Shown here piece by piece: positions 3,912-19,867 of a DNA stretch of 45,310 bases (positions are counted from its first letter, which is position 1; every line of letters starts with the position of its first letter). The notes beneath the pieces were generated by a model. The model was not told the origin of the DNA and did no database searches. It saw nothing but the letters and a program-made list of their open reading frames with translations. A program made the position numbers and the translations under genes. Source of the stretch: Candidatus Woesearchaeota archaeon (lineage in GTDB: Archaea > Nanobdellota > Nanobdellia > Woesearchaeales > GW2011-AR9); contig JABHXC010000028.1 of assembly GCA_018657475.1 (NCBI GenBank), positions 1 through 45,310 of the forward strand, given 5' to 3'.

Positions 3912-4115
3912 GTGGCATTACAAAAGAATAGTAATCATCGTGCGCTCTGGAGTCATCTTCAAATTTGGCTAGGAATAGTGATAGTGTTAGTAGGATTGCT
4001 TGTTTTCAAATATTCATGGATTGCAAGTGTAATTGTTTTAGTAATAGGCATTCTTCTTCTTGCCTGGAAGAAAAAAGAATTAAAAGATTTTAAAGAAAAA
4101 CAAAAAGAGAAATAA
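3912..4115 (+). CDS. Small two-TM membrane protein
   Basis: Two hydrophobic segments and a basic tail; GTG start. Confidence 0.6.
   Translation: MALQKNSNHRALWSHLQIWLGIVIVLVGLLVFKYSWIASVIVLVIGILLLAWKKKELKDFKEKQKEK
4067..4113 (+). repeat. 47-bp perfect direct repeat, copy 1
   Basis: gaagaaaaaagaattaaaagattttaaagaaaaacaaaaagagaaat, identical to 5288-5334. Confidence 0.9.
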
Positions 4116-4118
4116 AAA

Positions 4119-5048
4119 CTATTTATGAAATAAGAACTTCTGAATTGTTGGTCTCCAAAATGTTTTTGATGTTTTCAAATATTGTTCCATGGACAATCTA
4201 CAAAAATCAAAATTTTGATGGTTGCAATACTCAACTAATGTCTCACGAATTTGAAAATTCATATCACCTTTAAATATCAAAGGAGGATAATTATTCTGAA
4301 GCATTTGTACAACTAATAAAATTCTTCCCAAGCGACTATTACCATCAATAAATGGGTGAACTTTTTGGTAATTGAGATGAAAAATCAGTGGACGTAAGAA
4401 AGGATATACTTTTCTATCTTTATATTTCTTTAAAGTTTCTTTTAAATCATTTCTAATTTTGTTTGGCAATGATGTTAATGCTTTCTCAAGATAGCCAAAT
4501 GTGTTAATCTGTTTTTTAAATTTACCAGCATGTGAATAAATTCCACGATAAATGTCTTCATGTAACCTTTTAAACTGAACAATTGATCTAAATTCACTTT
4601 GCATTAATCTGAAGAGAGATTTTTTAGAATTATTATACAAATGAATGTCTAATTCTGGAAGTACAATTCTTTTCTTTTTATCTATGCTATCTGCAAGTTT
4701 AGGAGTTATTGTTGAACCTTCTAATTCCATACTATTTGCTAAAAAAAGCCTAACAAACTCACTAAAAATCTCTTTTTTATTTTTCTCTTCCAGTAAATTG
4801 AAAAATATTTGATAAAAAACTTTTTCTGTTTCTATTTCAACAATCTCTTTTAAAGTGAAATATGTTTGGAAATTTTCTTTAAAATATTTCGCTCTATCTG
4901 TAGCTATTTTCTGAATTATTTTTTCATTATAGCCTATTTTATCTTTAGCGATTATGAATGAGGCTTTTTTGATTTTATTTCCTATCCGAAAACTATGATC
5001 TATATAAGTGTAAGTTATACCATTAACCACTCTTTTTTGTAAAAACAT
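4119..5048 (-). CDS. Fic-domain protein
   Basis: HPFIDGNSRLGR matches the Fic motif HPFxDGNGRxxR with one G-to-S change; SMELEG N-terminal motif. Confidence 0.9.
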   Translation of the reverse strand: MFLQKRVVNGITYTYIDHSFRIGNKIKKASFIIAKDKIGYNEKIIQKIATDRAKYFKENFQTYFTLKEIVEIETEKVFYQIFFNLLEEKNKKEIFSEFVRLFLANSMELEGSTITPKLADSIDKKKRIVLPELDIHLYNNSKKSLFRLMQSEFRSIVQFKRLHEDIYRGIYSHAGKFKKQINTFGYLEKALTSLPNKIRNDLKETLKKYKDRKVYPFLRPLIFHLNYQKVHPFIDGNSRLGRILLVVQMLQNNYPPLIFKGDMNFQIRETLVEYCNHQNFDFCRLSMEQYLKTSKTFWRPTIQKFLFHK

Positions 5049-5154
5049 GATTTTTTTTTGTTTAATAGATATATAAATGTTATGTGGTTTTTAAACCTAC
5101 ATAATCTCAAAAAAAACAAGTAGTGGGGTTATTTAAACGCAATTTAAGTAAGAG

Positions 5155-5336
5155 ATACCACTACACAAAAACAAAAACAAATCAAAAATTAAACCTACTA
5201 AATCACACTAATTTGGAAAAATTACTCCAAAAACACCAATGGACAGAAGCATTATTATTCTGACTATTGGAATTATCTTAACTTTGTGAAGAAAAAAGAA
5301 TTAAAAGATTTTAAAGAAAAACAAAAAGAGAAATGA
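5155..5336 (+). pseudogene. Degenerate paralog of the 3912-4115 membrane protein gene
   Basis: Allowing two 1-bp gaps it reads W-T-x-SIIILTIGIILTL-W-KKKELKDFKEKQKEK, versus WIASVIVLVIGILLLAWKKKELKDFKEKQKEK. The 5' boundary is uncertain. Confidence 0.6.
5288..5334 (+). repeat. 47-bp perfect direct repeat, copy 2
   Basis: Identical to 4067-4113. Confidence 0.9.
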
Positions 5337-5337: not shown

Positions 5338-6819
5338 TTAACTCTCATCCAACCCACCAAATATTTCTTGGTCAGGAAAGACGTCAAGACCATCAGAAGT
5401 AATATTCATAGCTACAATCTTGTGCTGATGACCAGCTCCCCGTAATTTAAGAACTTCAATTGCTCGCTCCCTTACATTACCTCGTTTAATGTTATAAATC
5501 ACAACAACGGCGTCAGCAAGAAATTCTTCAACACCAGTGGTAGAAAAAATAGTTGGAACTTGTTTAGTTTCCGTTATCAAAAATGAAGTTGCACCAATTT
5601 CTTCAAAAAATCTAAACAACTGCTCAATGTAAATTCTGTAAGAATCCTCTTTACCAGTAAAAGCAGAAGCAATAGCTGTTAAAGAATCAACAACAATAAT
5701 GTCTGGTTTAAAATTACCTGGAAAAATGATTGGTTGGACATCAATTAATAGTTCACCTTTTGATTTCATTAAAAGAGCATCCACACTACGCGTGATTTCA
5801 AATGGATTAAACCTTTTTAGAAGAAGATTACCGTCTTTGATATGTTTCTGGGGGTCCCAGCCAAAATCCTCCATATGTTTAATTAGTCGTTCTTCAGACT
5901 CTTCAAAGCTCATATACAAACATTTCTCGCCATGAGAAGCATGATATTCAAGAGTTTGTAATGCAAAAATAGTTTTTCCACTTCCTGCACCACCTGCCAC
6001 CAATACAGCAGCCCCTTTTGGCAATCCTTTATCCAATAAAGCATCAAATCCCTCAATACCAGTATAAATGTATTCTTGTTCTTCTCCTTTTTTGAGTTTT
6101 TTATGGGGCTTCTTTTTTCCTTTTAACTCTTCTTCAATTTCTTCTTTTATAGCAGCCATGTCAATTTTCTTGTTGCCATTTACTGTTTTGGCAACATGGG
6201 CGACAGGTGCACGTTCCTCTTTGATTTTAGCATGATGTCTCTTGATTTTGCCAGACTTCAATTCTGCCTGAATTTTATCTTTAGCTTCTTCAATATCAAA
6301 TTGAGGTTTAGTTGATTTTGATTCTGATTCTTTTTCTGCTTTGGATTTACGAGGTAATTTAGTAATATGTTCTTCTTGAAGAGGTTGAAGTTTAACATCT
6401 TCTTTTGGAGATGGTTCATCTTTTAGCGTGTGGACGTTGTCCTGGTTTACTTTTTTAACATTAACTTTGCCAGAGTTGGTCAAAGAATGTAACTGATCAG
6501 AGATTGTTGATTTAGTTAAGCCGGTTTTTTCAATCATCTCACTTATTGAAAGTCCTTCAGGATGACTTTTAAGAAGTTCTTGAAGAGATTGAAGCGCAAT
6601 ATCTTCTTTTGTTGGTTCTTCTTGCTTCCATTTATGCACTTTTGCCATATTGATTTGTTTGACATCAACTTTTTCAGAACCAACTAAAGCATGTAAACGA
6701 GCTAAAACAGTATGTCTGGCCAAACCGGTTTTGTTCATAATATCCTGAATAGTAAGACCATCTGGGTGTGACTGGAGAAGATCAATAATTGTAATTTTCT
6801 TTTTATCTTTTTTTTCCAT
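5338..6819 (-). CDS. Tandem wHTH fused to a single KaiC-like (RecA-superfamily) ATPase domain
   Basis: Two ~69-aa HTH repeats (LLQSHPDGLTI / LLKSHPEGLSI); Walker A GGAGSGKT; SFEE; Walker B VVDSL; GVEEFLAD; KLRG. Start at 6819 is preferred because a TATA box lies at 6855-6862. Confidence 0.88.
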   Translation of the reverse strand: MEKKDKKKITIIDLLQSHPDGLTIQDIMNKTGLARHTVLARLHALVGSEKVDVKQINMAKVHKWKQEEPTKEDIALQSLQELLKSHPEGLSISEMIEKTGLTKSTISDQLHSLTNSGKVNVKKVNQDNVHTLKDEPSPKEDVKLQPLQEEHITKLPRKSKAEKESESKSTKPQFDIEEAKDKIQAELKSGKIKRHHAKIKEERAPVAHVAKTVNGNKKIDMAAIKEEIEEELKGKKKPHKKLKKGEEQEYIYTGIEGFDALLDKGLPKGAAVLVAGGAGSGKTIFALQTLEYHASHGEKCLYMSFEESEERLIKHMEDFGWDPQKHIKDGNLLLKRFNPFEITRSVDALLMKSKGELLIDVQPIIFPGNFKPDIIVVDSLTAIASAFTGKEDSYRIYIEQLFRFFEEIGATSFLITETKQVPTIFSTTGVEEFLADAVVVIYNIKRGNVRERAIEVLKLRGAGHQHKIVAMNITSDGLDVFPDQEIFGGLDES

Positions 6820-6854
6820 GTTGAATTCCTGTTTAAACGAGTATATCATATTCG

Positions 6855-6870
6855 TTTATAAACATTGCGC
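6855..6870 (-). promoter_or_regulatory. TATA/BRE-like promoter of the wHTH-KaiC gene
   Basis: TTTATAAA at 6855-6862; flanking sequence resembles the promoter at 3776-3790. Confidence 0.5.
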
Positions 6871-6907
6871 ATGGTAATTGAGTGGTTTGTTCGTCATTGA
6901 TAGATGC

Positions 6908-6946
6908 CTATCACAGATTAAATTTAGGTTCAAATTTAATGAAATT
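6908..6946. promoter_or_regulatory. Palindromic element copy 1 (ATTAAATTT-N6-AAATTTAAT) within a ~39-bp imperfect direct repeat
   Basis: Perfect 9-bp arms at 6917-6940; repeated at 7097-7136. Confidence 0.6.
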
Positions 6947-7096
6947 ACGATGAGGCGAAAGAGTGAGTCCAAAAAAATTAACGAGTGCATTGAAGTCATC
7001 ATTTTTGATTAAGAGAGTATTTATTTTAAGTATATGAGAGTTGTTTATAATAATTGTTATTCACCCACAAGTAGTTTTAACAACACTAATATGCAT

Positions 7097-7136
7097 CTAT
7101 CACACATTGAATTTAAGTTCAAATTTAATCAAAATT
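7097..7136. promoter_or_regulatory. Palindromic element copy 2
   Basis: ATTGAATTT-aagttc-AAATTTAAT at 7106-7129, preceded by the same ctatcaca. Confidence 0.6.
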
Positions 7137-7194
7137 AGATTCCTAACCACAAAAAAAATGGTCAAAATTATTAAAATTTATGTTTAAAAAAAGA

Positions 7195-10065
7195 TTAGTT
7201 TAATTTATTCTGTAATAATTCTAGCTGTTTTTTAAGATTTTTTCTGATTTTTTCTTCAGATTGTTTTTTTAACTGAGTTTTTAAATCAATTTCTTGTTGA
7301 TGTAATTTCTTCTTCAATTTCAAATGGGCAGCTCCAATAAGTTCTTTCTTCAACTTAGCTTTTTCAGTTTTTAATTTGATCTCATCTTTTGCTTTAAGAT
7401 CTGCCAATTTTTGCTGTAAGTCGTTATCTTTTAATCTCAAATCACTCAGATGATTTTTCTGCTCCATAGCCAATTCTTTTGATTTTTCTTGAAGAAGAGT
7501 TTTTTTTCGTTTTAATTCATCATTAAGTTTTTTGATCTTACTTTGACTGAGATTGCTTGACTTTCTAAACACACCAAGATGTTTGTTTAATTCTCGTACT
7601 TCATTTAAATGATGTTCTTTCTCTAGAATTAATTGTTTTTTCTTCCTGTTTAAAACAGTAGTTTTTAACTTTAAATTACTTCTAAGTTTCCTGATTAAAA
7701 CTTGATTGAGCTTTTGTTCATCATTTAAAGCCTGAACTGTTTTGTTTAATTCATTAGATTTTTTTCTCCAAAAGTCTTGACTTTCTTTACTTTTTTCTCT
7801 TAAGTTTAATTCTTTTAACTTTAGAATTTTTTTATCATGAGCAATTGTTTTGTTTAGTTTGCTTAGCTTAAGAGAGAATTCTTTGTTTAACTTAACAGTT
7901 AATTTTCTTTCATGTTCAGCAATCTTTTCATTTAACTCTTGGTGAGCACTTTGAATAATTCTTTCTTTTAGTTCAGCTTTTTCCCTAATAAGTCTAGCAT
8001 GATCTCTCTTTTTAATAGATTCAATTGATCGGAGTTGTTTCTGTTGGATCAATTTTTGCTGTTGAATTAATTTCTGTCGAGAAATCTTTTCTTGCTCAAG
8101 CTGAATTTCTTTTCCTTTTAAGACAGCTATTTTTTGTTGCAAGCCACCTACCATCTTTCTTACTTTGTTACTGCTTAAACTTTGATCGCTTTTTAATTCG
8201 TTAATTTGGTTGTTTAGATCTTCTTGTTTCTGTTTCAGAGAAACAAGTTCTTTAACTAAAACATCTTCTTTCAATTTTAAAGAATCGCGTTCACTTTTGT
8301 TTCTTACACTTAATTCTTCTAACTTCTTTTCTGTTTCTTCATTTAGCGCTCTTAATTTGTCTTCTGCTTCCGCACCCAAACGAGACTTTAATTCCTGTTC
8401 TTGTTGGAATAATTTATTATGAAGATTTTCTTGCGCCTGATTGAGTATATTAACTCTTGACTGAACTTTTTCATTCTCTAACTTTTCTCGTTCTTGCTTT
8501 TTAAGAACAAAAAATTCTTTTTCTAGATTTTCTCTTTGTAGATCTAACTCGTCTTGATAGTGTCTTTTCTCTTCAGCAAGCAGTTTTTCTTTCTCTTGAA
8601 GAGAGTTATCTTTTAACTGTAAATTGTTTACCAATCTACTGACTTCACTCTTAGTTAAGATTTGATCTTTTTCTAAAGAACTAATTTTATTTTTTAGATT
8701 TTCTCGTAATTGCTGAGCTGAGCTTTCTTTTTTGCTCATCTCTTCCAACATCCTGTTCTCTCTTAAGTTTAAATTACTTTTTTCTTGCTCCATTTTTGTC
8801 TGGAGCACATTTATCTTAGAGTTAAAATCTTGTTTTAATTTTTTTTCAAGAACGGTTCTCTGCTTATTCAAAGCGCGATGAAGTTTCTTTTTGAGCTTCT
8901 TTTCATGTTGTTGGTCCAACTTACTTTTTAAATTGGTTTGAGTCTCTTTAACAATCGTTGTTACTAGTTGAGCTTTCTCACGCTCAAATCTTGCTTTTTC
9001 TTGTTTTTTAAGTTCAGTAAAACTCTTTATCAAATTTTGCTTTTGAGAATCAAGATCGTCTTGATAACGCTTCTTTTCAGTTACTAATTGTTTTTCTTTT
9101 TCTTTTAAATCATTATTTTTTAATTGTAAATTGTCTTTTAATCTTTTTAGCTCGCTCTTGCTAAAAACTTGATCTTTTTCTAAAAGACGAATTTGAGTAG
9201 TTAAGTTTTGTTGTTGTTGTTGCAATGATTGTCTTTGTTTTTTAAGTTCAATAAAACTCTTTGTTGAATTTTGCTTTTGAGAATTAAGATCGTCTTGATA
9301 ACGCTTCTTTTCAGTTACTAATTGTTTCTCTTTTTTATTTAAATCATTATTTTTTAATTGTAAATTGTCTTTTAATCTTTTTAGCTCGCTCTTACCAAAA
9401 ACTTGATCTTTTTCTAGAAAACGAATTTGGTTTTTAAAGCCTTCTTGCTTTTGTCGCAGTGAAAGCTCACTTTTTTTCATCTCTTCTAAGATTTTCTTCT
9501 TCCTTAAATTAAGATCAGATTTTTCTTTCTCCATTCTTTTTTGGAGACCATCAATCCTAAGATCAAAATCTTGTTTTAATTTGGTCTCTAGAACTTTCTT
9601 TTGTTTACGTAGTGCTTGTTGCAGTCTTCTTTTGAATTTTAGTTCATATTCTTTTTCTAATTGTTTTTCTAATTGTTCTTTTTCACGACGTTCTTTCTCC
9701 CTATAAGCTTCATCAATGATTTCAGGAGGTATTCTTGGAGATAATTTTTTCTTAATTTTAACTAAAATGTTTTCTTCAACGGGTTGAACCTGGGATTCTC
9801 TGAAAAAATACTTTTCAACTATTTCACCTTTAGGTTCCGTTTTTTTTCTTTGATTCTTTTTAGTAGTTTTTTTAGAATTATGTTTGTTATGAGTCTTTTT
9901 TTTAGCATTAACTTTCTTAACAGAAGTTCTTTTAGCACTTGATTTTTTGTTAGGATTTCTGCTAGAATTCTTCTTTGAAACTTTTTTGGATTTAGATAGA
10001 ATAGTTTTACTGGAAACGGGCGTACTCTCCCTCTGCTTACTGAAGACTTTATCGAAAAGTGCCAT
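7195..10065 (-). CDS. Long coiled-coil protein with a basic N-terminus and internal repeats
   Basis: 956 aa, K/E/Q/L-rich heptads, no enzymatic motif, repeated LEKDQ...NLQLK blocks. Confidence 0.85.
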   Translation of the reverse strand: MALFDKVFSKQRESTPVSSKTILSKSKKVSKKNSSRNPNKKSSAKRTSVKKVNAKKKTHNKHNSKKTTKKNQRKKTEPKGEIVEKYFFRESQVQPVEENILVKIKKKLSPRIPPEIIDEAYREKERREKEQLEKQLEKEYELKFKRRLQQALRKQKKVLETKLKQDFDLRIDGLQKRMEKEKSDLNLRKKKILEEMKKSELSLRQKQEGFKNQIRFLEKDQVFGKSELKRLKDNLQLKNNDLNKKEKQLVTEKKRYQDDLNSQKQNSTKSFIELKKQRQSLQQQQQNLTTQIRLLEKDQVFSKSELKRLKDNLQLKNNDLKEKEKQLVTEKKRYQDDLDSQKQNLIKSFTELKKQEKARFEREKAQLVTTIVKETQTNLKSKLDQQHEKKLKKKLHRALNKQRTVLEKKLKQDFNSKINVLQTKMEQEKSNLNLRENRMLEEMSKKESSAQQLRENLKNKISSLEKDQILTKSEVSRLVNNLQLKDNSLQEKEKLLAEEKRHYQDELDLQRENLEKEFFVLKKQEREKLENEKVQSRVNILNQAQENLHNKLFQQEQELKSRLGAEAEDKLRALNEETEKKLEELSVRNKSERDSLKLKEDVLVKELVSLKQKQEDLNNQINELKSDQSLSSNKVRKMVGGLQQKIAVLKGKEIQLEQEKISRQKLIQQQKLIQQKQLRSIESIKKRDHARLIREKAELKERIIQSAHQELNEKIAEHERKLTVKLNKEFSLKLSKLNKTIAHDKKILKLKELNLREKSKESQDFWRKKSNELNKTVQALNDEQKLNQVLIRKLRSNLKLKTTVLNRKKKQLILEKEHHLNEVRELNKHLGVFRKSSNLSQSKIKKLNDELKRKKTLLQEKSKELAMEQKNHLSDLRLKDNDLQQKLADLKAKDEIKLKTEKAKLKKELIGAAHLKLKKKLHQQEIDLKTQLKKQSEEKIRKNLKKQLELLQNKLN
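9001..9429. repeat. Intragenic tandem duplication, 234-bp (78-aa) period
   Basis: 9001-9195 closely matches 9235-9429 (KDQVFxKSELKRLKDNLQLKNNDL...ELKKQ twice). Confidence 0.85.
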
Positions 10066-10130
10066 TACAAACCTCTTTTTAAATAAGAATGAATTAGGAG
10101 GTTATAAATGTTACTTTGTTCAAAGTTTTA

Positions 10131-10475
10131 TTAGATAAGTGATTTTACTTTATTAAGTAAACTCTCAGAAGTAAATGGTTTCTGAATAAAACCGTCAATA
10201 TCTTCCATCCTTACATCTGCTTTTGGAATAATAGTGGCATAAATCATTTTTGCATCGTGATTTATGCGTTCTCTAAGTAATCTTAGAAGATCATATCCAG
10301 ATAAAGTAGGCATTTGAACGTCAATTATGATTAAATCAAAACCATCTTTTACTTTGTCTAAACCATCTGCACCATTATTTGCAGTTACAACACTATAACC
10401 ACCTTTTTCTAAAACATCTTTCATAGTGTCAAGATCTTCCATGTCATCATCAATAATTAATATTTTCTTTGCCAT
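10131..10475 (-). CDS. Stand-alone response regulator receiver (CheY-like)
   Basis: ILIIDDD, phosphoacceptor DVQMP, KPF. Confidence 0.93.
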   Translation of the reverse strand: MAKKILIIDDDMEDLDTMKDVLEKGGYSVVTANNGADGLDKVKDGFDLIIIDVQMPTLSGYDLLRLLRERINHDAKMIYATIIPKADVRMEDIDGFIQKPFTSESLLNKVKSLI

Positions 10476-10503
10476 TTTTAAACCTGGTTTATTGTTTTTT
10501 TAG

Positions 10504-11886
10504 TTATCTTTTTTTAGTGGTTTTCTTAACTTTTTTCTTTTTATTAATAGTTTTCTTAGCAACATTTTTCTTTCTATTTATTTCTTTAGCTAGCTTCTCG
10601 CCTTTATCATATAACGCTTTTTCCCTATAAGCTTCTTGAACTAGCTTTTTAGATAACTTTCTGAAAAGAGATTTTTCTTTAGGATTGTTGGACCGCCCGT
10701 TTTTCTTAACTTGTTTGGTAATATCATATACTATCCCATAAACTCCCTGAAGCTTACCTGATTTAAACACTGAAGTTTTACGATCCTCAACTGTTCTCAC
10801 ATTTTTATTTTTGTCAATAATCCTATATCTCTGGATTATTGATCCTGGTTTTCTAATTAATTTTGAACCTTGCTTAAAAACTATTTTTTTATCTTTAGGG
10901 TAAATTAAATCTGCCCAACTAACTTTTTTCTTGGAAAAATCTTTTATTGAATAACCACAAACAAGTTCGCTATTAGCTATTATTTCAGCAGACCAATCTT
11001 GTTTTCCAATATAAAACATCCCAGAGGAATTTTTAACAATTAATTTATATTTATCTTCAATTTCTTTTTCCTTTTCTTTAATTGCTTCTCCCAAACCAAT
11101 CTCTTCTTTTGTTGTCCCAATTCTTAAAATGGCTAATTTTAAACTTGCAAGAATACGATCGAGGGAATTAGTTAGACTTTGGATTTCAAAAATATTACTT
11201 CCTTCTAACTGAATGTCTAACTTTCCTTTTGTTATCTCTTCAATACTTCTAGTTAATTTTACAATGGGATCAGAAATACGTTTAGCAGCAAAAATTGAAG
11301 TAAATATTAAAATAGTAGCGAGAATTATTGAGACGATTAAAATCAAGTTTCTAGATAATTCCTGACTTTCTCTTAACTCATCTTTAACAAAATCAGATAA
11401 CTTTAAAGAATTGGAAATCATTGATCGTGAAGTTACTAACATCTTAGAAATTATTCTTTCTTCAATAAGTTCAGATTTTTTAATCTCTTCAAGAGGAGAA
11501 TTTTCTTGAATTAATTTTTTCTTTGCATCGTAGTTTGCAACTAAGTCCGAGAATGAACTTCCAAGAGACATATAATCATTATTTATTGTTATGACAAGTT
11601 CTTTTTCTTCATCATCATCCCAATAACTTTCAGGTGAATTTATAAAGACACCCATGGAGTTATATTTTAAGCGCCATTGCTGCTCCATTCTCTCTTCTTG
11701 AAACAAAAAATATTCAGAAGTAAGAATATCAATTTCTGATACTGACTGCAGAACATTTTCGGTTAAATCAAGTTCTTTCGTTTCCCTGGATATCTCATTA
11801 GAAGTTATCAAAACTACAAGAACAAGCGTTAAAACTAGAAATACTGAAATTCCAGAACTAATGTAAAGTTTGGTTCTTATTTTCAT
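10504..11886 (-). CDS. Membrane sensor: 2 TM + HAMP + PAS, no kinase or MCP output domain
   Basis: Two TM helices; HAMP (ISDPIVKL...EIQSLTNSL); PAS/PAC (WADLIYPKD...GIVYDIT); basic tail. Confidence 0.82.
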   Translation of the reverse strand: MKIRTKLYISSGISVFLVLTLVLVVLITSNEISRETKELDLTENVLQSVSEIDILTSEYFLFQEERMEQQWRLKYNSMGVFINSPESYWDDDEEKELVITINNDYMSLGSSFSDLVANYDAKKKLIQENSPLEEIKKSELIEERIISKMLVTSRSMISNSLKLSDFVKDELRESQELSRNLILIVSIILATILIFTSIFAAKRISDPIVKLTRSIEEITKGKLDIQLEGSNIFEIQSLTNSLDRILASLKLAILRIGTTKEEIGLGEAIKEKEKEIEDKYKLIVKNSSGMFYIGKQDWSAEIIANSELVCGYSIKDFSKKKVSWADLIYPKDKKIVFKQGSKLIRKPGSIIQRYRIIDKNKNVRTVEDRKTSVFKSGKLQGVYGIVYDITKQVKKNGRSNNPKEKSLFRKLSKKLVQEAYREKALYDKGEKLAKEINRKKNVAKKTINKKKKVKKTTKKR

Positions 11887-11890
11887 CTTT

Positions 11891-12975
11891 TAATCATCTT
11901 ATTATCCCAATAGCTTCTGGTTTAACTTTTTCTAATGTATTCAAATGAATATAGTCCAAATAATTTGGAACTTCTTTTGCATCCGTTAAATCATTTTCAA
12001 TTGCCCATCTTGCTTCATCTTCTAGAGTTACTAATAAAGATTGGTCTAAAGAAATTTTAAATTTAAAGTCATCCCAGAGAGTAGTTATAATCTCTTGATC
12101 TAAATTTAATCTTTCAGCTACAATTGTTTGTGATTCTTCTTTGTTGTTTTTGATAAAATTAGTTGCTTCATCAACCGCCATAAGAAACTTTTCTATAATT
12201 TCAGGATTGTCTTCTACAAACTTATTCAGTACCATTAAATTAAAAGTTTCAGTGTAAACTTCAGAACTGGGTATTACTAAAGAGTTATCTCCCAATAAAT
12301 TTATTGCATTATACGCATGTGGTTCCCAAATAACAATGGCATCAACGTCCCCATTCTGTAACGCAGATGGTAATTCTGAAGGGATAAAACTTACTGTTTC
12401 CACATCAGATTCTAAAATTTTAGTATAAATTAAAAAAGCTCCTAAGAAAAACTGACTTGTTGAACCATCAACAATTCCTATTTTTTTACCTTTTAGATCT
12501 GCTGCAGAGTTAATTCCAACATCTTTTCTGGTAATTACTTTCACATCCTCATTAGAATCTACAAATGTTGCAAAAATAGAAAAGTCTTGTCTCTTGAAAC
12601 TATTAAACATAATAGGAGTAGGTGCAACTGTCGATATGTCCACACCACCATTTAACATATCGTTGAAACTTGCTTTCCCAGAATCAAATTCTTTAATAGT
12701 TAAATCCAATCCTTGTTCTTGAAAATAACCTTGATCTTCTGCAACCCAGACTGCTGCAGTGAGTAAACTTGTTTCTGCACCTAACGTGACTTTGTCAAAT
12801 TCTACTTGCTCTTGTGAACAACCTACAACTAGTAGACTAAACGATAAAATCAAAATTAAACTAATTATTTTTCTCTCCATCTTAATCATCTTATTATCCC
12901 AATAGCTTCTGGTTTAACTTTTTCTAATGTATTTAAATGAATATAGTCCAAATAATTTGGAACTTCTTTTGCATC
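11891..12975. repeat. 93-bp near-identical 3' ends of the two SBP genes (11891-11983 and 12883-12975)
   Basis: One mismatch seen by eye; both proteins end DAKEVPNYLDYIHLNTLEKVKPEAIGIIR. Confidence 0.85.
11894..12880 (-). CDS. NrtA/SsuA/ThiY-family substrate-binding lipoprotein
   Basis: Lipobox VVGC; GYFQEQGL; DLKGKKIG; WEP. Start could be 12880 or 12889. Confidence 0.88.
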   Translation of the reverse strand: MERKIISLILILSFSLLVVGCSQEQVEFDKVTLGAETSLLTAAVWVAEDQGYFQEQGLDLTIKEFDSGKASFNDMLNGGVDISTVAPTPIMFNSFKRQDFSIFATFVDSNEDVKVITRKDVGINSAADLKGKKIGIVDGSTSQFFLGAFLIYTKILESDVETVSFIPSELPSALQNGDVDAIVIWEPHAYNAINLLGDNSLVIPSSEVYTETFNLMVLNKFVEDNPEIIEKFLMAVDEATNFIKNNKEESQTIVAERLNLDQEIITTLWDDFKFKISLDQSLLVTLEDEARWAIENDLTDAKEVPNYLDYIHLNTLEKVKPEAIGIIR

Positions 12976-13944
12976 TGTCAAGTTATTCTCAACATACCAT
13001 CTTGCTTCATCTTCAAGAGTTAAAAGTAAAGAGTGATCCAGAACAACATTAAAGTTATAATTCGCCCATAGTTCTTCTATATCTTGTTTAGTTCCATTAA
13101 CAGCAACAGCAACAATTTCTATAGACTCTTGTTTATTTTGTTTAACAAATTTTTCTGCTTTAAACAACGCTCTAATTATCTTTTCAAAAACTTCTGGATG
13201 TTCACTAATCAGATCAGTCTTTGATGCTAAATTAAATGTTGCAGAATAGCCATAATCATTTGGTAAAAGATTAGCTTCTTCCCCTAAACTTCTCTGAGCT
13301 TTTATAATGTTTGGTTCCCAAGTAAAAATAACGTCCACTTGTTTACTTTTAATTGCTTCAACCATCTCACCCGGTTTTAAATCAATGAGTTCAACATCAT
13401 CTAAACTTAAACTATTGAAGACAAAAAAAGTTATCATTGAAAAATGAGCAGTGGTTCCTTTCGTTGTAGCTACTATTTTTCCTTTTAAGTCTGCTGGATT
13501 CACAATTCCCGTATCTTTCCTGGTAAGAACTTTTACGTGATCTGCAGAATTAACTATTGTTGTAAAAGTCATAAAATCATTTCTTTCAAAACTTTTAACC
13601 ACAATGTTAGGATCAGAAACAGTTGCAATATCAACCTCATCATCTAACATCGCCTGAAAAGCAAATTTTCCTGCTGAATAACCTTTTATCTCGACATTAA
13701 CACCTTCTTCCAAAAAATAACCATTAGAATCAGCTATATGGATCAAAGCAGGAAGAAGACTTGTAGCACTAATACTAATAGATACATCTTCAAAATCTCT
13801 TTTTTCTTCCGCCTCAGAGACCATAAAAGATACTAAGAAAATTAGGCCCAAGATCACAACAATTCCTATAACTACCAACAATAAATTACTTGATTTTTTA
13901 TTGTTATTATTGTTTTTATTATTGTTATCTATCACTTTTTTCAT
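12886..13944 (-). CDS. NrtA/SsuA/ThiY-family substrate-binding protein, TM-anchored paralog
   Basis: N-terminal TM; GYFLEEGV; DLKGKIVA; WEP. Confidence 0.88.
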   Translation of the reverse strand: MKKVIDNNNKNNNNNKKSSNLLLVVIGIVVILGLIFLVSFMVSEAEEKRDFEDVSISISATSLLPALIHIADSNGYFLEEGVNVEIKGYSAGKFAFQAMLDDEVDIATVSDPNIVVKSFERNDFMTFTTIVNSADHVKVLTRKDTGIVNPADLKGKIVATTKGTTAHFSMITFFVFNSLSLDDVELIDLKPGEMVEAIKSKQVDVIFTWEPNIIKAQRSLGEEANLLPNDYGYSATFNLASKTDLISEHPEVFEKIIRALFKAEKFVKQNKQESIEIVAVAVNGTKQDIEELWANYNFNVVLDHSLLLTLEDEARWYVENNLTDAKEVPNYLDYIHLNTLEKVKPEAIGIIR

Positions 13945-13982
13945 CTTATTTAACCAAATTTTGTTTTTAATCTTCTATAATA

Positions 13983-14945
13983 TTATTTTCTTCTTTTTGT
14001 TTTTTTCTTTCTATTAATTTGTTTGGCCATTTTTTCTCCTTTATTGCGTAATTTGTTTTCTTCATAAGCTTCATCTAACAATTTTTTAGAAACTTTTAGG
14101 GAGACACTTTTCTCTTTTTTTTCTAACACTGCCAATTTCATTGATTTTATAACCCTATTTAATGAGTGGTTTAATTTGTTGATCTCGTTTATCTTTTCAC
14201 TCCCATTAAGATTCAGATTAAAATTTCCTCGACTGATCTCGTCAACTACATTGGCCATATGATTAATAGGTTTTGAAATTGAACGAGAAGTAAAAAAAGC
14301 AACAACTGCTCCAACTATAAGAATAATTATGAAGAAAATTAGAGCTATTTTTAGATTACTGTCTAAAGATCGATGTATATCTTCAGCAGTATTAGTTATA
14401 CCAATTGTAGAACTTTTAACGATTTCTGTAGAAAATGATCCTCTCTTTGAGAAGTATTTTTCTAATCCTATATTATAAATCTCTTTCTGGTCCCAATATT
14501 CAGCACTTTCTAAAATAGTAACAGCACTTTCTTTTTCACCCTGAGAAACTCTAAGTATGGCTTCTTCTTCCATATCAACTAAAGCCAAATTTGCTGATTC
14601 AATACTTTGAAAAAAAATTTTATCTTCTAAATCTCCTTTTTCAATAGCCTCTTTTACTACTCTGTCCAATTCTGGAACTATTGTGTTATACCTTTGCTTC
14701 CATTTTTCATCACTAGTGAAAGCATAGTTTCTAGCACTCATAGTTAAAACTTCATCATAATACTTAATTAAATCGGCAAGTTTGTCCAACTCTAATTTCT
14801 TTGATAAATCAGAGATATCTTCTTGAATTTGATGTTCTAGTGGATGAGTAGATTTTTCTAAACCAGAGTATGAAATAAACCCAGAGATAAATATTAATAG
14901 TAAGATTAAAGAAAATCCAATATAAAATCGTGTTGAGATCTTCAT
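13983..14945 (-). CDS. Membrane sensor: 2 TM + helical extracellular domain + HAMP, no output domain
   Basis: TM-helical bundle-TM; HAMP (ISKPINHM...EINKLNHSL); basic tail. Confidence 0.82.
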   Translation of the reverse strand: MKISTRFYIGFSLILLLIFISGFISYSGLEKSTHPLEHQIQEDISDLSKKLELDKLADLIKYYDEVLTMSARNYAFTSDEKWKQRYNTIVPELDRVVKEAIEKGDLEDKIFFQSIESANLALVDMEEEAILRVSQGEKESAVTILESAEYWDQKEIYNIGLEKYFSKRGSFSTEIVKSSTIGITNTAEDIHRSLDSNLKIALIFFIIILIVGAVVAFFTSRSISKPINHMANVVDEISRGNFNLNLNGSEKINEINKLNHSLNRVIKSMKLAVLEKKEKSVSLKVSKKLLDEAYEENKLRNKGEKMAKQINRKKKTKRRK

Positions 14946-14992
14946 TTTATTGATAACACCTCAACAATTAATCCCATTGTTATCGCCATATT

Positions 14993-15286
14993 CTAATTAT
15001 TGACTCCTTTAATTACTCTAAAAAAGTAGTATGTACCAATTAATAAAATAATTGAACCGATTAATACTAAAATTGGCATGACATTAAATAGAATGTTTTC
15101 GCTTAAAAATCCATATGCCTCTAAAAACTCAGCCAATGAATGTAAAGCAACACTTACTAAAACCCCTGTAGCTAGTAAAACTGCACTGGTGTGAAGACCT
15201 TTTGCACATTTGTTTGCAACAATAAACAAGTACACTGTTGCAGCAATAGCTGAGATCGCAGATAATAAATTTAATATTTCAATCAT
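14993..15286 (-). CDS. Small 3-TM membrane protein
   Basis: Three hydrophobic helices; start overlaps the upstream stop. Confidence 0.7.
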   Translation of the reverse strand: MIEILNLLSAISAIAATVYLFIVANKCAKGLHTSAVLLATGVLVSVALHSLAEFLEAYGFLSENILFNVMPILVLIGSIILLIGTYYFFRVIKGVNN

Positions 15287-15456
15287 TTTATACGCCTCTT
15301 TTTTTGTTTAATATTTTTTACTCTTTTTCTTTTTTTAACTTGCTTTTTTACAAAACCGTTATTTTTTAACTTATTTTCGTCAACAAGAATTTTTTTTAAT
15401 TTTTTAATCAAACCTTTTTTTAGTAATGATTTGGCATCAACTGGTTTTTTAATCAT
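15283..15456 (-). CDS. Unannotated 57-aa highly basic protein
   Basis: Hand translation: MIKKPVDAKSLLKKGLIKKLKKILVDENKLKNNGFVKKQVKKRKRVKNIKQKKRRIK. AGAGGT RBS-like motif upstream; TGA overlaps the next ATG (ATGA). Confidence 0.7.
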   Translation of the reverse strand: MIKKPVDAKSLLKKGLIKKLKKILVDENKLKNNGFVKKQVKKRKRVKNIKQKKRRIK

Positions 15457-15498
15457 CTTGTACCTCTACTTACCACATTCTTTTTTTTTATATAAATG

Positions 15499-17556
15499 TT
15501 ACTTTGTCTTTGATTTTTTTAATTTCCTGGGATGGTCAATATTATTCTTTACAAACCCTGCTTCAATAATCTCTTTACCTGCTACCTTTTTATCTAAACG
15601 GTTATTAGATGATCTTTTCTCAAACAAAGCAAGCACATTATCCCTAAAATCACTTGCTTCTTTAACTGTAAGGATGTGATTTCTTTCTAAGATATTGATG
15701 TCTCCAAGAATATCCTTAGTAGTTATTCCAGGAAGTTTGTTAAGTTGTTTTTCACCCATCGGACCAAGAACTTTAAGATATAAATTTCTAATTTCAGCAG
15801 AAACGTCCTTTCCAAAGAATTTTTCTACAACCAAAATCAGATTTTGTGTTTGATTATTGTTAATGATGCCATGCCCTTGTATCTCTTTAACATAACTTAG
15901 TATGGTATCTTTTGATAGCCCTAATCGTTTTAATATATTAAACTCTTTTTCTCCCATTGGGCCAAGAATTTCTAAGAATAATTTTTTAAATTCTAACTCT
16001 ACATTTTCCTGTGATGAAAATAATAACTTGATTGCTTTAATCTCTTTAACAGGGATTAAAGGGAGGGTGAAGTAAAATGTTGACCCTTTACCCACTTCAG
16101 ATTCTAACCAAAGTTTTCCATTTTGTGCTTCTACAATACCGCGACAAATTGCTAAACCTAATCCAGTTCCACCTTTCTTACGATATATTGTTTGTTCGGC
16201 TTGATAAAATGGTTCAAAAATTCTTCTTTGATCTTCTAGTTTTAAACCTACACCCTGATCAGTCACACTAAATTGGATATAATTTTCTTTCTTTTTAGCA
16301 GTGACCACAACTTGTCCATTGTCTGGACTAAATTTAATTGCATTATTGATTAAATTTCTTAGGACTTGATCAACCCGATCAGGATCAACTTCAATTATTG
16401 GTAAATTATCAATGTGACCAATGATCTTAACTTTTTTCTCTGGCATGAACCCTTCCATAAATTTTAGTAATTGGTTCACTGATTGAGTTAGACTTACTTT
16501 CTTAAAAATAAATTTTAACCTAGCTGCCTCAATCCGGCTTACTTCTAAAAAGTCAACAATAATTTTGTCTAATCTATTAGCGTTTCGAATAACTGTTTGA
16601 ACTGCTTCTTTTTGTTTTTTAGAAATCTTGCCAAAATATTCGCCCTCTAACATTTGTAACTGTGCTTTCATAGGAGTCATTGGACTCCGTAATTCATGAG
16701 AAGTAATACTGATAAATCTGGTTTTTGCACTATCAATTTGTTTTCTTTCTTTTTCCACTTGAGCTAGTGCTTCTGTTGTTTTGTTTAATGCTAATCCTAA
16801 CTCTTCTAACTCATCTCCAGTTTTAACATCAACGCGGGAAGTATAATCGCCTTGTCCAATCTTTTTTGTTGCAAGATACAAATGTTGAATCGGTTTTGAA
16901 ATGGATTTGGAAACAACAAAACCAAACAATAATATGATAACAGTTATTACAAACATTATTAATGAAGTAATATTACCAACAACTTGTTTTCCCTCATTAA
17001 TTTTCACATAAGCAGCTGCAATCTCATTATTTCTTCTTAACATCTCGGGACTATTATCTTCAAGAAAATCAAGAGAAGATTTAATCTTAGGATTAAGTGT
17101 TCCATTAATAAAAGTTACTTCATTGGCAATAATATCTGCTTTTTCTTTGTATTCTAACCATAATTCTTCAGCTTTTAAAACAGTGGGCATGATACTTGGA
17201 ATTGCAGGGGGTAAAATTTTATTGTCAGCTATACCTGGAGCAATTCCTCCATCTTTTAAAGCATAAAAAGAAGTGTGATGTAATTCAATAAATGAGAGAA
17301 GTGGAGCTCTATCCTCTTCGTGTCCCTTAGCAACCATCTCGGAGTAATATCCAATTCTTTGAGAAAGCATCCTGTTTCTTCCAGCAGCATCTATAAGAGC
17401 ACCATCTGATTTTTGTGAAGATTGAAGATTGTAAACTAAAATAACATTAGATAATGTAATAAGAAATATAATGGAAAAGATGAAAATAAACTTTCTATTG
17501 ATCTTATTTGTTACCCACTTTTTCAAACTAAAGTGTTTTTTACTATCTAAGTCCAT
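15499..17556 (-). CDS. Sensor histidine kinase (PilJ/NarX-type sensor, HAMP, HisKA, HATPase) with a duplicated C-terminal LGPMG domain
   Basis: IDAAGRNRMLSQRI; H-box SHELRSPMT; N-box NLINNAIKF; G1 DQGVG; G2 GGTGLGL. Confidence 0.93.
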   Translation of the reverse strand: MDLDSKKHFSLKKWVTNKINRKFIFIFSIIFLITLSNVILVYNLQSSQKSDGALIDAAGRNRMLSQRIGYYSEMVAKGHEEDRAPLLSFIELHHTSFYALKDGGIAPGIADNKILPPAIPSIMPTVLKAEELWLEYKEKADIIANEVTFINGTLNPKIKSSLDFLEDNSPEMLRRNNEIAAAYVKINEGKQVVGNITSLIMFVITVIILLFGFVVSKSISKPIQHLYLATKKIGQGDYTSRVDVKTGDELEELGLALNKTTEALAQVEKERKQIDSAKTRFISITSHELRSPMTPMKAQLQMLEGEYFGKISKKQKEAVQTVIRNANRLDKIIVDFLEVSRIEAARLKFIFKKVSLTQSVNQLLKFMEGFMPEKKVKIIGHIDNLPIIEVDPDRVDQVLRNLINNAIKFSPDNGQVVVTAKKKENYIQFSVTDQGVGLKLEDQRRIFEPFYQAEQTIYRKKGGTGLGLAICRGIVEAQNGKLWLESEVGKGSTFYFTLPLIPVKEIKAIKLLFSSQENVELEFKKLFLEILGPMGEKEFNILKRLGLSKDTILSYVKEIQGHGIINNNQTQNLILVVEKFFGKDVSAEIRNLYLKVLGPMGEKQLNKLPGITTKDILGDINILERNHILTVKEASDFRDNVLALFEKRSSNNRLDKKVAGKEIIEAGFVKNNIDHPRKLKKSKTK

Positions 17557-17675
17557 CTATCAACCTCTAATGTAAAATGAATGTTTTTTTCTTTTTAAAG
17601 TATTCCTCTAAATAGAATGAAAAAATGGAATAAAAGTAGGATTAAAATATAAAAATAAGATATAGAAAAAATGGT

Positions 17676-18200
17676 TTATTTTATCTCTATTACCGCATCA
17701 ACAAACATTGAAGCTTTCTTGATCAAAGCTTCCTGCTCTTTTATGTTTAAAGCGAGAAAAATTCCTTTAGTCTTACTAGCTTTGACTTTGTTGATTAGGT
17801 TACAAACAAATTTTTCTACTACGTTCGGTTTTCGATATGTTAAAAGATTAGTGATAGAATCAAAAATTAAATAGTCAAAACCGTGACCAATAAACTTTGA
17901 AATCACTATAGATAACTCAGTCAATGCACCTGGAGAGCTTACAAAATAGCAGCTTTCTGTTTGATCTTCTGATTTTTTAATTGTTTTAGAAATTGCGTCA
18001 ATAAAAACCATATTTTCTAACTTAACTTTTTTCTTTTTGAATTGTTCAGTAAGAGCATAAAAAGTTTTGTTTAAAGTGACATAACAAACATTCTTTTTAG
18101 AAAGTTTTTTTGTAACATCTGCTAAAATATCATGGTAGTCGGAACTGGGGAGTACTATTAACACGGTTTTATTTTCTGCTAATGTTTTTTCAATATCCAT
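17676..18200 (-). CDS. Degenerate RecA/KaiC-fold protein (no Walker A), probable signalling accessory
   Basis: CYVTLNK, FIDAIS, LIFDSITNLL and FVDAVIEI follow the KaiC-like strand order without GxxGxGKT. Confidence 0.7.
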   Translation of the reverse strand: MDIEKTLAENKTVLIVLPSSDYHDILADVTKKLSKKNVCYVTLNKTFYALTEQFKKKKVKLENMVFIDAISKTIKKSEDQTESCYFVSSPGALTELSIVISKFIGHGFDYLIFDSITNLLTYRKPNVVEKFVCNLINKVKASKTKGIFLALNIKEQEALIKKASMFVDAVIEIK

Positions 18201-18201
18201 T

Positions 18202-18555
18202 TTATCCCAAGATTTTTTTTACTCTGGCTATAAGAGTTTTAATATCAAATGGTTTTTGAATAAAATCAACTATATTCTTTTGACCAAGTAGTTCTTCTTT
18301 TTCAGCTTCTGAGGTTCTTACAACACTCAAAAAAGAGATTTTGACGTTCTTTATTTTTTTTACAACATCTCTTGTTGGAGTTCCTGGCATCATTATGTCC
18401 ATTAAAATTAGATCAGGTTTAGTCTTTTCTAATTTCTTTAAACAGTCATCACCACTTACTGCAGTAACAACAGAGTAGCCCTCTTTCTTCAGAATCATCT
18501 TAACGGAAGAACGAATATCCTCTTCATCATCCACAACCATTATTGTTTTAGTCAT
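18202..18555 (-). CDS. Stand-alone response regulator receiver
   Basis: IMVVDDE, DIMMP, KPF; AGAGGT RBS before ATG 18555. Confidence 0.93.
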   Translation of the reverse strand: MTKTIMVVDDEEDIRSSVKMILKKEGYSVVTAVSGDDCLKKLEKTKPDLILMDIMMPGTPTRDVVKKIKNVKISFLSVVRTSEAEKEELLGQKNIVDFIQKPFDIKTLIARVKKILG

Positions 18556-18653: not shown

Positions 18654-19064
18654 TCAGTTTAACTCCCTAATTCTTTTAATAAAATTTTTCATTCTTATTA
18701 AAACAGCTTGTGCTTCTTTCACATTAATTTCTTTGCCATAATAATTTAGTGCATTTCTTAATTTTCTGAATTTATCAAATTCGTCTCCAAGTCTGGATTC
18801 ATTAATAATTTCTTTAAGAAAAGCAGTATAACATTCATGGTTGTAAATTTTTAAGCTATTTTTTAGTGCTAAAACTTCTAAAAGAATACGTAAAGAATCA
18901 TACAATAAAGTTATTTTTGAATCTATGAAACTTAATGGGAGAGAATTTGAAGCTTCTTCTTTTCTTTGAGCACTTTTCAATAAAGCAATTATTTTATTCC
19001 GATCTGTTGTAACTTTCTTCACAAACCCACTCTTTTTGCAATTTACCATGTCCATTATTACCAA
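18654..19064 (-). CDS. HEPN-domain protein (toxin of the MNT-HEPN pair)
   Basis: Helical, NHEC and RKLRNALNYY; directly downstream of MNT. True start may be 19055 or 19049. Confidence 0.78.
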   Translation of the reverse strand: MVIMDMVNCKKSGFVKKVTTDRNKIIALLKSAQRKEEASNSLPLSFIDSKITLLYDSLRILLEVLALKNSLKIYNHECYTAFLKEIINESRLGDEFDKFRKLRNALNYYGKEINVKEAQAVLIRMKNFIKRIRELN

Positions 19065-19567
19065 CTCCCAGAAAGTAAGAAACCGTTAAGAATATTGTGT
19101 AATAATTCCTTATTTTTATTTAATGATTCTCTATCTTTAAAAGTAAATAATTGAATTTCTCTTTTGAATTTTGATTCAAACTTCTTTAAATTAATTGGTT
19201 TCTTTGTTGGAGAAAATATGGCAAGGTCAATGTCAGAATTCTCATTAATCTCACCTTTTGAAAAAGAACCGAATAAGATGATTACGGGATCGAGAAATTG
19301 TTCTTCTAAAAAAAAAGTTAATGGCTCTAAATATTTAGTATAATAAGCCTGTTGTAGCTTTACAAATAGCTTATTCTCTCGATTTGCTTGGAAAAAGTGA
19401 TAACGACGATCTTCTTCTTTTGTAAGCAGACCTTCTCTAGTAAAAAAGTTAAGTAATTTTGAGGCGTGGGGTGGACTAATTTTTTTAAACTTAGCAAATT
19501 CTCTAACACTTATCTTTACATAATTGTCTTCAAAAAAGTAAGCAAGGGTGTTAAATATTTCTAACAT
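19058..19567 (-). CDS. wHTH + minimal nucleotidyltransferase (MNT antitoxin)
   Basis: SVREFAK...HASKLL HTH; LFGSFSKG...SDIDLAI. Confidence 0.88.
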   Translation of the reverse strand: MLEIFNTLAYFFEDNYVKISVREFAKFKKISPPHASKLLNFFTREGLLTKEEDRRYHFFQANRENKLFVKLQQAYYTKYLEPLTFFLEEQFLDPVIILFGSFSKGEINENSDIDLAIFSPTKKPINLKKFESKFKREIQLFTFKDRESLNKNKELLHNILNGFLLSGSW

Positions 19568-19696: not shown

Positions 19697-19867
19697 CCCT
19701 CTGATTAATACACACCAAGGGATCTCATTAGTTTTTAAAGAGATAATAGGAATAATTCCTTACTGGATTTTGGAAACTTTTTTAGTTTAAATTTTTACAG
19801 AAGTTAAATTAAGATGAAAAACTAAATCTACATCACTTTTTTAAAGAGAACATAGAATTGTAAGATT

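Follow-up and report, generated by a model that had tools for sequence, protein, structure and literature searches.

Is a dense island of signalling genes in a DPANN archaeon one pathway, or a row of neighbours without a common function? The question is raised by contig JABHXC010000028.1 of a Candidatus Woesearchaeota archaeon (assembly GCA_018657475.1), which we analysed over its whole length of 45,310 nucleotides (nt; contig C52, hereafter the window). The source genome comprises 1.06 Mb on 81 contigs, is 100% complete by marker genes and encodes an archaeal family-B DNA polymerase; the GC content is 28-37%. On the minus strand of the window, genes for a membrane histidine kinase, membrane sensors, solute-binding proteins (SBPs) and receivers lie beside that of a central KaiC ATPase. 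The closest named relative of this ATPase is found in a 'Candidatus Woesearchaeota' metagenome-assembled genome (MAG), followed by two 'Candidatus Aenigmatarchaeota' MAGs. Our analysis favours one functional two-component pathway feeding a KaiC-type ATPase hub, with a probability of about 0.6.

A listing of open reading frames (ORFs) combined with Pfam searches gave twelve successive minus-strand ORFs between 5338 and 18633. The twelve co-oriented genes named in a first-pass annotation of this DNA were all recovered, together with their domains. In order of transcription they are:

18202-18555, minus strand: REC1, a stand-alone receiver (Pfam Response_reg, 76 bits).
17676-18200, minus strand: iKaiC, a P-loop-less KaiC/RecA-fold protein of 174 amino acids (aa) (sub-threshold Pfam matches to KaiC, DUF7504 and DUF7090).
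15499-17556, minus strand: membrane histidine kinase (Pfam PilJ-HAMP-HisKA-HATPase_c).
15283-15456, minus strand: lysine-rich ORF of 57 aa, doubtful as a gene (no Pfam family).
14993-15286, minus strand: lineage-specific ORF of 97 aa with three hydrophobic segments (hydropathy; no Pfam family).
13983-14945, minus strand: HAMP sensor, composed of a transmembrane segment, an outer domain of ~170 aa, a second transmembrane segment, HAMP and a short basic tail (Pfam HAMP, hydropathy).
12886-13944, minus strand: SBP 1, NMT1/SsuA-like with an N-terminal membrane anchor (Pfam NMT1, 80 bits).
11894-12889, minus strand: SBP 2, NMT1/SsuA-like with a lipobox-like N-terminus (Pfam NMT1, 97 bits).
10504-11886, minus strand: HAMP-PAS sensor, composed of a transmembrane segment, an outer domain, a second transmembrane segment, HAMP, PAS and a basic tail (Pfam HAMP and PAS_3).
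10131-10475, minus strand: REC2, a stand-alone receiver (Pfam Response_reg, 68 bits).
7195-10065, minus strand: basic repetitive protein of 956 aa, an orphan (no Pfam match).
5338-6849, minus strand: KaiC ATPase with two winged helix-turn-helix (wHTH) domains (Pfam KaiC 166 bits, HTH_IclR 48 bits).

The stretch that runs from REC1 through the 956-aa ORF is packed like an operon, with intergenic distances of -4 to 119 nt, and the REC1 stop codon overlaps the iKaiC start. A longer REC1 frame opens with a GTG at 18633, but the orthologs start at the ATG corresponding to 18555. The KaiC gene is set apart by its own upstream region of 345 nt. A simple hydropathy scan indicates two membrane segments flanking an outer domain of ~150-170 residues in the kinase and both HAMP proteins, and one N-terminal anchor in each NMT1 binding protein.

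The kinase consists of a transmembrane segment, a PilJ/NarX-type sensor domain, a second transmembrane segment, HAMP, HisKA (55.9 bits), HATPase_c (107 bits) and an all-helical C-terminal extension of ~150 aa. Both catalytic domains exceed their Pfam cut-offs and the H-box histidine is seen in the translation. HisKA and HATPase_c are thus combined in one protein with conserved-residue receivers nearby, as expected of a two-component system. An alignment of REC1-type receivers (n=15) revealed D9, D10, D53 and K101 to be invariant, i.e. the acidic pair, the phospho-acceptor aspartate and the lysine; REC1 shares 83% identity with its ortholog in genome G009. REC2-type orthologs are found at the KaiC loci L034 (65% identity), L049, L057 and L072. 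Judged by their conserved positions, the kinase and both receivers have kept intact catalytic residues.

Most archaeal response regulators are bare receivers. All five receiver matches of the window's genome are of this type, since they sit in open frames of only 118-146 aa. This agrees with the first-pass annotation, which had noted the lack of a DNA-binding response regulator, and its statement that KaiB and CheW are missing holds for the whole 1.06-Mb genome. No match to KaiB was obtained there (KaiA was not searched separately) and none to CheW or MCPsignal (CheA was not searched separately). Chemotaxis-type signalling, as defined by methyl-accepting proteins and CheW, was hence not found in this genome.

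The protein encoded directly downstream of REC1 resembles KaiC in fold but lacks its ATP-binding motif. The AlphaFold2 model of iKaiC reached a predicted local distance difference test (pLDDT) score of 95.7. Foldseek placed PH0284, a KaiC-like protein of archaea (TM-score 0.74), FlaH and KaiC on top with E values of 1e-6 to 1e-5, and a profile search against the PDB found KaiC at E 3.4e-4. Walker A is missing in 30 of 30 aligned homologs from related loci (no GxxGxGK[ST] past strand 1), which have conserved motifs of their own in common. Hence, iKaiC belongs to an inactivated KaiC family. This family, a relative of DUF7504 and DUF835, is large: when 1.84 billion representatives were searched with a profile, 3613 representative clusters passed E<=1e-3, and 810 passed the stricter limit of E<=1e-30. 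Among the 34 longest of the best 150 relatives DUF7504, KaiC, DUF835 (3/34), CheC and CBS domains occur; a receiver domain was found in none of these 34. Prediction of a REC1-iKaiC complex gave a median score of 0.32 and a single control 0.14, values that are given no weight in either direction. Further iKaiC genes exist in the window's genome. One (DUF7504) lies on contig C74 (3153-8198, locus L100), where it adjoins a DDE transposase together with two divergent KaiC-like ATPase genes, and a third on contig C19.

The KaiC ATPase itself has a single KaiC domain (residues 262-494 by Pfam). It probably starts at Met11 (6819), because a TATA-like box lies only 5 nt ahead of the first ATG. An alignment of 66 orthologs showed G286, G289, K292, D388 and S389 to be invariant and T293 as well as F315-E316-E317 to be nearly so; the RecA-type core, Walker A, Walker B and the catalytic glutamates of the KaiC family are accordingly all present. 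In addition, the protein matches GvpD_P-loop with 32.8 bits (cut-off 24), as do 54 of the 66 orthologs, which is a likeness at domain level only. Of 40 relatives, 8 have a close ortholog; among 400 other genomes from the order, the number is 52 (E<=1e-60, 43-80% identity).

To what extent is this gene set conserved? KaiC orthologs were sampled in 400 other genomes of the same order (E<=1e-60), and all ORFs of 64 KaiC-ortholog loci in other genomes were compared with the cluster proteins. These stretches cover up to 10 kb per side, with a mean of 16 kb, and many end at contig ends. An iKaiC gene is present at 36 of the 64 loci, a receiver at 19, a histidine kinase at 16, an output-less sensor (HAMP, Cache or PAS) at 14 and an NMT1 binding protein at 2. 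By a rough estimate from five receivers per 1.06 Mb, a receiver within 16 kb would be expected by chance at well under 10% of loci. The association of these partners with KaiC is recurrent but not obligate.

Receiver and iKaiC form a recurrent pair. At 13 other loci a REC1-type receiver lies less than 200 nt from iKaiC, in either gene order. These loci belong to 11 Woesearchaeales genomes from 10 families and to two Aenigmatarchaeota MAGs, and at 11 of the 13 a kinase is located inside the fetched stretch. The full core (receiver, iKaiC, kinase, one or two output-less sensors, second receiver, KaiC) is syntenic in three other genera (L034 in G009, L049 in G325, L057 in G157), with the sensor domains exchanged, dCache replacing PilJ. 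Similar ensembles are found in the two Aenigmatarchaeota MAGs. One of them, L043, encodes an output-less Cache-HAMP protein, an SBP_bac_3 protein, a kinase, one further gene, a receiver, iKaiC, three genes, a second KaiC-like protein and the KaiC ortholog. Since this is the same design built from partly non-homologous parts in another phylum, it is our strongest argument for a functional rather than an accidental ensemble. The twelve-gene system proposed in the first-pass annotation is thus upheld in part: kinase, receivers, iKaiC, KaiC and output-less sensors recur, whereas the coiled coil, the small ORFs and the NMT1 proteins do not belong to the recurrent set. What the 956-aa protein, both small ORFs and the NMT1 proteins add to this set is either confined to the lineage or sporadic.

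These additions are also what an alternative explanation would build on, by which a two-component system, an SBP/HAMP pair and an unrelated KaiC-like regulator stand side by side as independent modules of a variable island. NMT1 proteins are found at only two of the 64 KaiC loci, and the coiled coil and the two small ORFs at none. At 17 of the 64 loci (many cut by contig ends) KaiC has none of the partners, which speaks against a single pathway as well. Moreover, mobile or defence-type genes are inserted in the region, namely a Fic gene within 47-nt repeats and a HEPN-like/nucleotidyltransferase (NTase) pair with paralogs on four other contigs, and KaiC has its separate upstream region of 345 nt. 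Nevertheless we regard chance neighbourhood as unlikely. It would not account for a receiver-iKaiC pair that two phyla share at 13 other loci, 11 of which have a kinase close by, for the synteny of the whole core in three other genera, or for Aenigmatarchaeota that rebuild the design with non-homologous sensor and SBP families. Furthermore, receiver-iKaiC fusions exist according to the tables of PMC5847659.

The C-terminal extension of the kinase (15502-16044) is made up of an all-helical domain of ~65 aa, present here in two repeats. Elsewhere it was detected in the kinases of the most similar clusters (L034, L057, L049 and L076) and in no other kinase. There is no Pfam match, no Foldseek match in the PDB at E<=1e-3 and no usable match in the ESM Atlas. 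Two wHTH-like repeats were suspected at first; this idea was dropped in view of the all-helical AlphaFold2 model (pLDDT 68.8) and the Foldseek result. A KaiC-family protein of 651 aa encoded at L056 ends in a weak match (E 3e-4).

What could be the output of such a pathway? Upstream (first entry) and downstream of KaiC the following elements are located:

6840-7140, no strand assigned: upstream region of KaiC with a duplicated unit (repeat finding and sequence).
4067-5334, minus strand: Fic/DOC insertion with the gene at 4119-5048 (Pfam Fic; perfect 47-nt repeats).
3551-3748, minus strand: conserved small protein of 65 aa (sequence; sub-cut-off Pfam match to HTH_11).
3-3554, minus strand: giant surface protein of at least 1184 aa, cut by the contig end (Pfam Big_7, Big_13, Y_Y_Y).

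The giant protein has an N-terminal anchor (one hydrophobic segment), an N-terminal domain of ~130 aa (N-domain) and Ig-like repeats; about five other loci of the window's genome match its repeat region. Homologous giants of at least 900 aa are encoded at 25 of the 64 KaiC loci, in 24 cases within 5 kb of KaiC. This corresponds to 38% of the loci compared with less than 10% by chance, the latter being a rough expectation. The 65-aa gene, present once in the genome, has a TATA-like box ~30 nt upstream, and its stop codon and the start codon of the giant overlap. Its product is probably a wHTH protein, as suggested by the HTH_11 match. Homologs are found at 13 of the 64 KaiC loci (E 8e-28 to 5e-6), in 12 of them directly ahead of a large ORF and at six less than ~200 nt from the KaiC ortholog. 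Altogether 25 of the 400 other genomes have the 65-aa gene. Twelve of these also have a KaiC ortholog, and in seven of the twelve the two genes are less than 7 kb apart. The link between the 65-aa gene and KaiC is real but not obligate. The cluster therefore reaches past position 5338, where the first-pass annotation had ended it, to the 65-aa gene and the giant gene, both recurrent neighbours of KaiC.

In the window the Fic gene separates KaiC from this small-wHTH/giant unit. Perfect 47-nt direct repeats (4067-4113 and 5288-5334) flank it, and it matches PADLOC PDC-S04 and SoFic. Because of the repeats and the matches to candidate defence families it looks like an insertion with target duplication that is not part of the system. 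The contigs of four DNA runs break at the 47-nt repeats and none spans the Fic gene.

In the region upstream of KaiC a unit of ~110 nt is present twice, 189 nt apart, each copy with a 9-6-9 palindrome (6918-6939 and 7107-7128) and a TATA-like box. This palindrome unit is a candidate operator. A pattern search returned the two copies and two sites with two mismatches, one of which (19787-19808) lies upstream of the NTase/HEPN-like/REC1 string. A palindrome regulon is not claimed, since the count is no higher than chance.

Several observations weigh against the single pathway and above all against its output, in addition to the KaiC loci without partners. First, the wHTH fusion of KaiC is rare. 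HTH domains are matched by Pfam in 2 of the 66 orthologs, and phmmer detected the N-terminal wHTH-bearing domain in three further ones (L037, L053, L064); the remaining orthologs have unrelated N-termini or DUF5752 (6/66). As so few orthologs carry the domain, the tandem wHTH appears to be a lineage-specific fusion, and the transcriptional output which the first-pass annotation had read from it is not conserved. Second, the wHTH assignment of the 65-aa protein relies on matches below cut-off (HTH_11 E=1.1e-4; best profile match in the PDB E=0.009), and in 13 of the 25 genomes with this gene a KaiC ortholog is missing at E<=1e-60. Third, the N-domain of the giant occurs in 153 of the 400 genomes of the order, most of them without a KaiC ortholog; this tally includes seven unpublished genomes. 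The adjacency of KaiC and giants could thus partly reflect how abundant giants are. Fourth, the palindrome count of 4 compares with 1.2 expected and is reached in 3 of 100 shuffles, which is not significant. Finally, domain content and synteny are what was observed, and we infer everything beyond them. As regards the N-domain, it is often present in several copies per genome, in open frames of 1000-8000 aa, and was for its frequency rejected as a KaiC-specific marker. Taken together, transcription of the small-wHTH/giant unit as the output of KaiC is a tentative proposal that we consider possible rather than probable.

KaiC and iKaiC might also act on the giant protein post-translationally, for instance by helping to export, anchor or assemble it, or work in a pilus-like structure, as ArlH/FlaH do for the archaellum motor, with the two-component genes in a modulating role only. 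KaiC orthologs directly precede giants at many loci (at L057 with a gap of 46 nt and no small wHTH gene), and both iKaiC and KaiC resemble FlaH/ArlH. However, no secretion ATPase, membrane platform or pilin-processing gene is found among the scanned cluster genes of the window, the KaiC encoded here carries wHTH domains of the DNA-binding type, the likely wHTH gene is interposed at 13 loci, and 39 of the 64 KaiC loci have no giant at all. A post-translational role is hence rather improbable.

We return to the single pathway and its input side. Ten sensor-type neighbours of KaiC orthologs contain Cache, HAMP and/or PAS domains and no kinase, methyl-accepting or cyclase domain; one of the ten shows sub-threshold matches to MarR/HTH_24. 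Two sensors of G009 and one of G033 are likewise output-less. The HAMP sensor of the window has an ortholog in G009 (53% identity), and relatives of the HAMP-PAS sensor adjoin an SBP in G033 and at L090, the latter with PAS domains only. At L034, L049, L050, L057, L068, L043 and L099, dCache and sCache are frequent sensor domains of both kinases and output-less sensors. In a census of 2018, as far as its summary of these domains goes, archaeal Cache domains were almost confined to Methanomicrobia (PMC5847659).

The two binding proteins combine the NMT1/SsuA fold with an anchor or export signal, as is typical of binding proteins of ABC importers. Their best NCBIfam matches are SsuA/TauA, below the curated cut-offs. 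A BPD_transp_1 permease was not found in the window's genome (other permease families were not searched), and the same search matched 14 of 14 reference genomes. All three NMT1 genes of the genome lie beside sensors. The description of the SBPs as orphans without an ABC permease in the first-pass annotation is thus borne out within the scope of this search, and the binding proteins are apparently retained for sensing rather than uptake. The two SBPs share 46% identity overall and yet differ by one mismatch in the last ~90 nt of their genes (11894-11990 versus 12886-12980), which suggests gene conversion of a conserved C-terminal segment. This segment is also conserved in the G033 ortholog. Elsewhere in the genome, contig C69 (1214-8281, locus L099) encodes an output-less multi-PAS protein of 1066 aa, an NMT1 protein, a dCache-HAMP kinase and two stand-alone receivers with no KaiC nearby.

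A reading in which the SBPs do normal transport work for an importer whose genes lie elsewhere or for one of another family, and in which the HAMP-only proteins are functionless remnants of kinases or chemoreceptors, fits the usual role of NMT1 proteins as ABC importer parts (best NCBIfam matches SsuA and TauA) and the restriction of the permease search to BPD_transp_1, but is very unlikely given a 100%-complete genome without BPD_transp_1 (control 14/14), the position of all three NMT1 genes beside sensors, and output-less sensors that are intact and conserved at orthologous positions in G009, G033, G325, G157 and L043 with a well conserved HAMP.

The remaining genes of the cluster are special to this lineage. 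The 57-aa and the 97-aa ORF are each absent from all 64 KaiC loci. The 956-aa protein contains 20% K, 15% L, 11% E and 9% Q, with P and G nearly absent past residue 200. Judged by this composition, it is probably a coiled coil. The gene contains a recent tandem duplication of 234 bp (9001-9429; 1.8 copies, 93% identity), and the protein is built up from similar repeats that are older and have diverged further. No homolog was detected at E<=1e-3 among proteins of 525-1673 aa, the length class that was searched, and no KaiC locus encodes one (0/64). A coiled-coil scaffold as a part of the system, as assumed in the first-pass annotation, therefore does not generalise. A short motif is common to both HAMP tails and the 956-aa protein. 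In a six-frame search of the genome it was found in these three alone, and additionally in one G009 ortholog. The search expression was composed post hoc from the sequences seen, so that the result is a lead and does not amount to a test. In this particular genome, the version of the system may have the 956-aa protein as its scaffold.

Directly upstream of REC1 and on the same strand, overlapping genes for a HEPN-like protein of 136 aa and an NTase are located (18654-19567). The pair matches the PADLOC candidate PDC-M05A/B. Paralogous pairs exist on contigs C76, C4 and C31 and an extra NTase paralog on C67. Like the Fic gene, the pair is an unrelated insertion of the defence or toxin-antitoxin type. 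For KaiC, iKaiC, the coiled coil, the HAMP protein and the giant, PADLOC returned weak or domain-level matches or none. A defence-system reading of the core was dropped, as PADLOC was convincing for no core protein. Further away, two adjacent ribonucleotide reductase genes are found at 30553-36881. The first encodes a class II type protein of 1424 aa with a LAGLIDADG intein, the second a protein of 684 aa with an ATP-cone.

How does the cluster relate to known systems? Archaeal KaiC-like ATPases were reportedly proposed as signal transduction hubs by Makarova, Galperin and Koonin in 2017. To our knowledge there is little experimental backing for this proposal. The cluster described here resembles such hubs in that a single-domain KaiC ATPase and an inactivated homolog are encoded amid sensor and receiver genes, with signalling proposed to run via protein-protein contact. 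It differs by a gene set that recurs in Woesearchaeales and Aenigmatarchaeota, a membrane kinase, a stand-alone receiver adjoining iKaiC, output-less HAMP/Cache sensors, orphan SBPs and the frequent link to a small likely wHTH gene and a giant. As in the cyanobacterial KaiABC system with SasA/CikA and RpaA, a histidine kinase and a receiver are the partners of a KaiC ATPase. In contrast, there is one KaiC domain rather than CI and CII and no KaiB (KaiA was not searched), and signals probably flow from the kinase to KaiC and not from KaiC to the kinase as in the clock. In LuxP-LuxQ, TorT-TorS and the haloarchaeal BasB-BasT, an SBP is encoded beside a membrane sensor and does not serve transport. 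Here, however, the sensors lack a kinase or methyl-accepting output, and the SBPs belong to an NMT1/SsuA-like family.

Other parallels are documented in the literature. PMC5847659 credits the hub concept to Makarova et al. 2017 and lists in its Table 3 receivers fused to inactivated KaiC, namely iKaiC-REC (Methanosarcinaceae), REC-DUF835 (Methanomicrobia, Thermoplasmata) and MEDS-REC. The fusions of this table likewise join a receiver to a P-loop-less KaiC-fold domain; in our loci receiver and iKaiC are encoded by two genes that overlap or abut, and either may come first. GvpD is described to bind the activator GvpE and to lower its amount in a P-loop-dependent manner (PMC4390858). As far as that account goes, a KaiC-related P-loop ATPase is there, too, encoded beside a small transcription regulator and the structural genes under control. 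Differences are a small protein that is not GvpE-like (weak HTH_11 match only), a giant as target and a two-component input. In Haloferax volcanii, KaiC-like CirA and the QarA two-component system emerged from the same quorum-sensing screen and act in shape and motility switching (PMC13464002). In the parts of that report considered here the Haloferax genes are not described as one cluster, and the response regulator there has an HTH output.

The first-pass annotation had proposed a candidate new system. Since KaiC hubs and fusions of receivers with inactivated KaiC are in print (PMC5847659), components and general idea are already known and the system is not categorically new. We found no description of this particular cluster in the literature; the 2017 hub paper or Table S3 of PMC5847659 (DPANN kinases and receivers) could list its genes. 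Four features appear to be undescribed: the recurrent DPANN arrangement, the stand-alone receiver-iKaiC pair beside a membrane kinase, output-less sensors paired with SBPs in a genome without a matching permease, and the frequent link to a small likely wHTH gene and a giant surface-protein gene.

Based on these data the pathway could operate as follows. Once loaded with ligand, the binding proteins would attach to the outer domains of the kinase, of the output-less sensors, or of both. These sensors would modulate the kinase within the membrane or signal via their conserved cytoplasmic tails, and the kinase would phosphorylate REC1 and REC2. Phosphorylated REC1 may act on iKaiC, which in turn would tune hexamer assembly or ATPase activity of KaiC. 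KaiC would then set transcription of the downstream small-wHTH/giant unit, in this genome possibly directly via its own two wHTH domains. A more general route could be control of the small wHTH protein by KaiC, on the pattern of GvpD and GvpE. The complete chain as a common design of DPANN archaea in at least two phyla, from orphan SBPs and co-sensors via kinase, receiver, iKaiC/KaiC and small wHTH to a giant adhesin-like protein, is more speculative still than the output step and in our view improbable in this full form.

The cluster devotes ~1.5% of the DNA of a 1-Mb DPANN genome to one sensing pathway. The arrangement is compact and recurrent, and the steps from kinase to receiver, iKaiC and KaiC can each be tested with purified proteins. 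If the proposal is true, it would provide the first concrete wiring diagram of signalling by stand-alone archaeal receivers. The link to the giant gene, if real, would tie signalling to structures thought to mediate contact between DPANN archaea and their hosts. The cluster would then represent a host- or environment-sensing switch, responding to compounds that are possibly host-derived, for the deployment of the cell surface in episymbiotic archaea.

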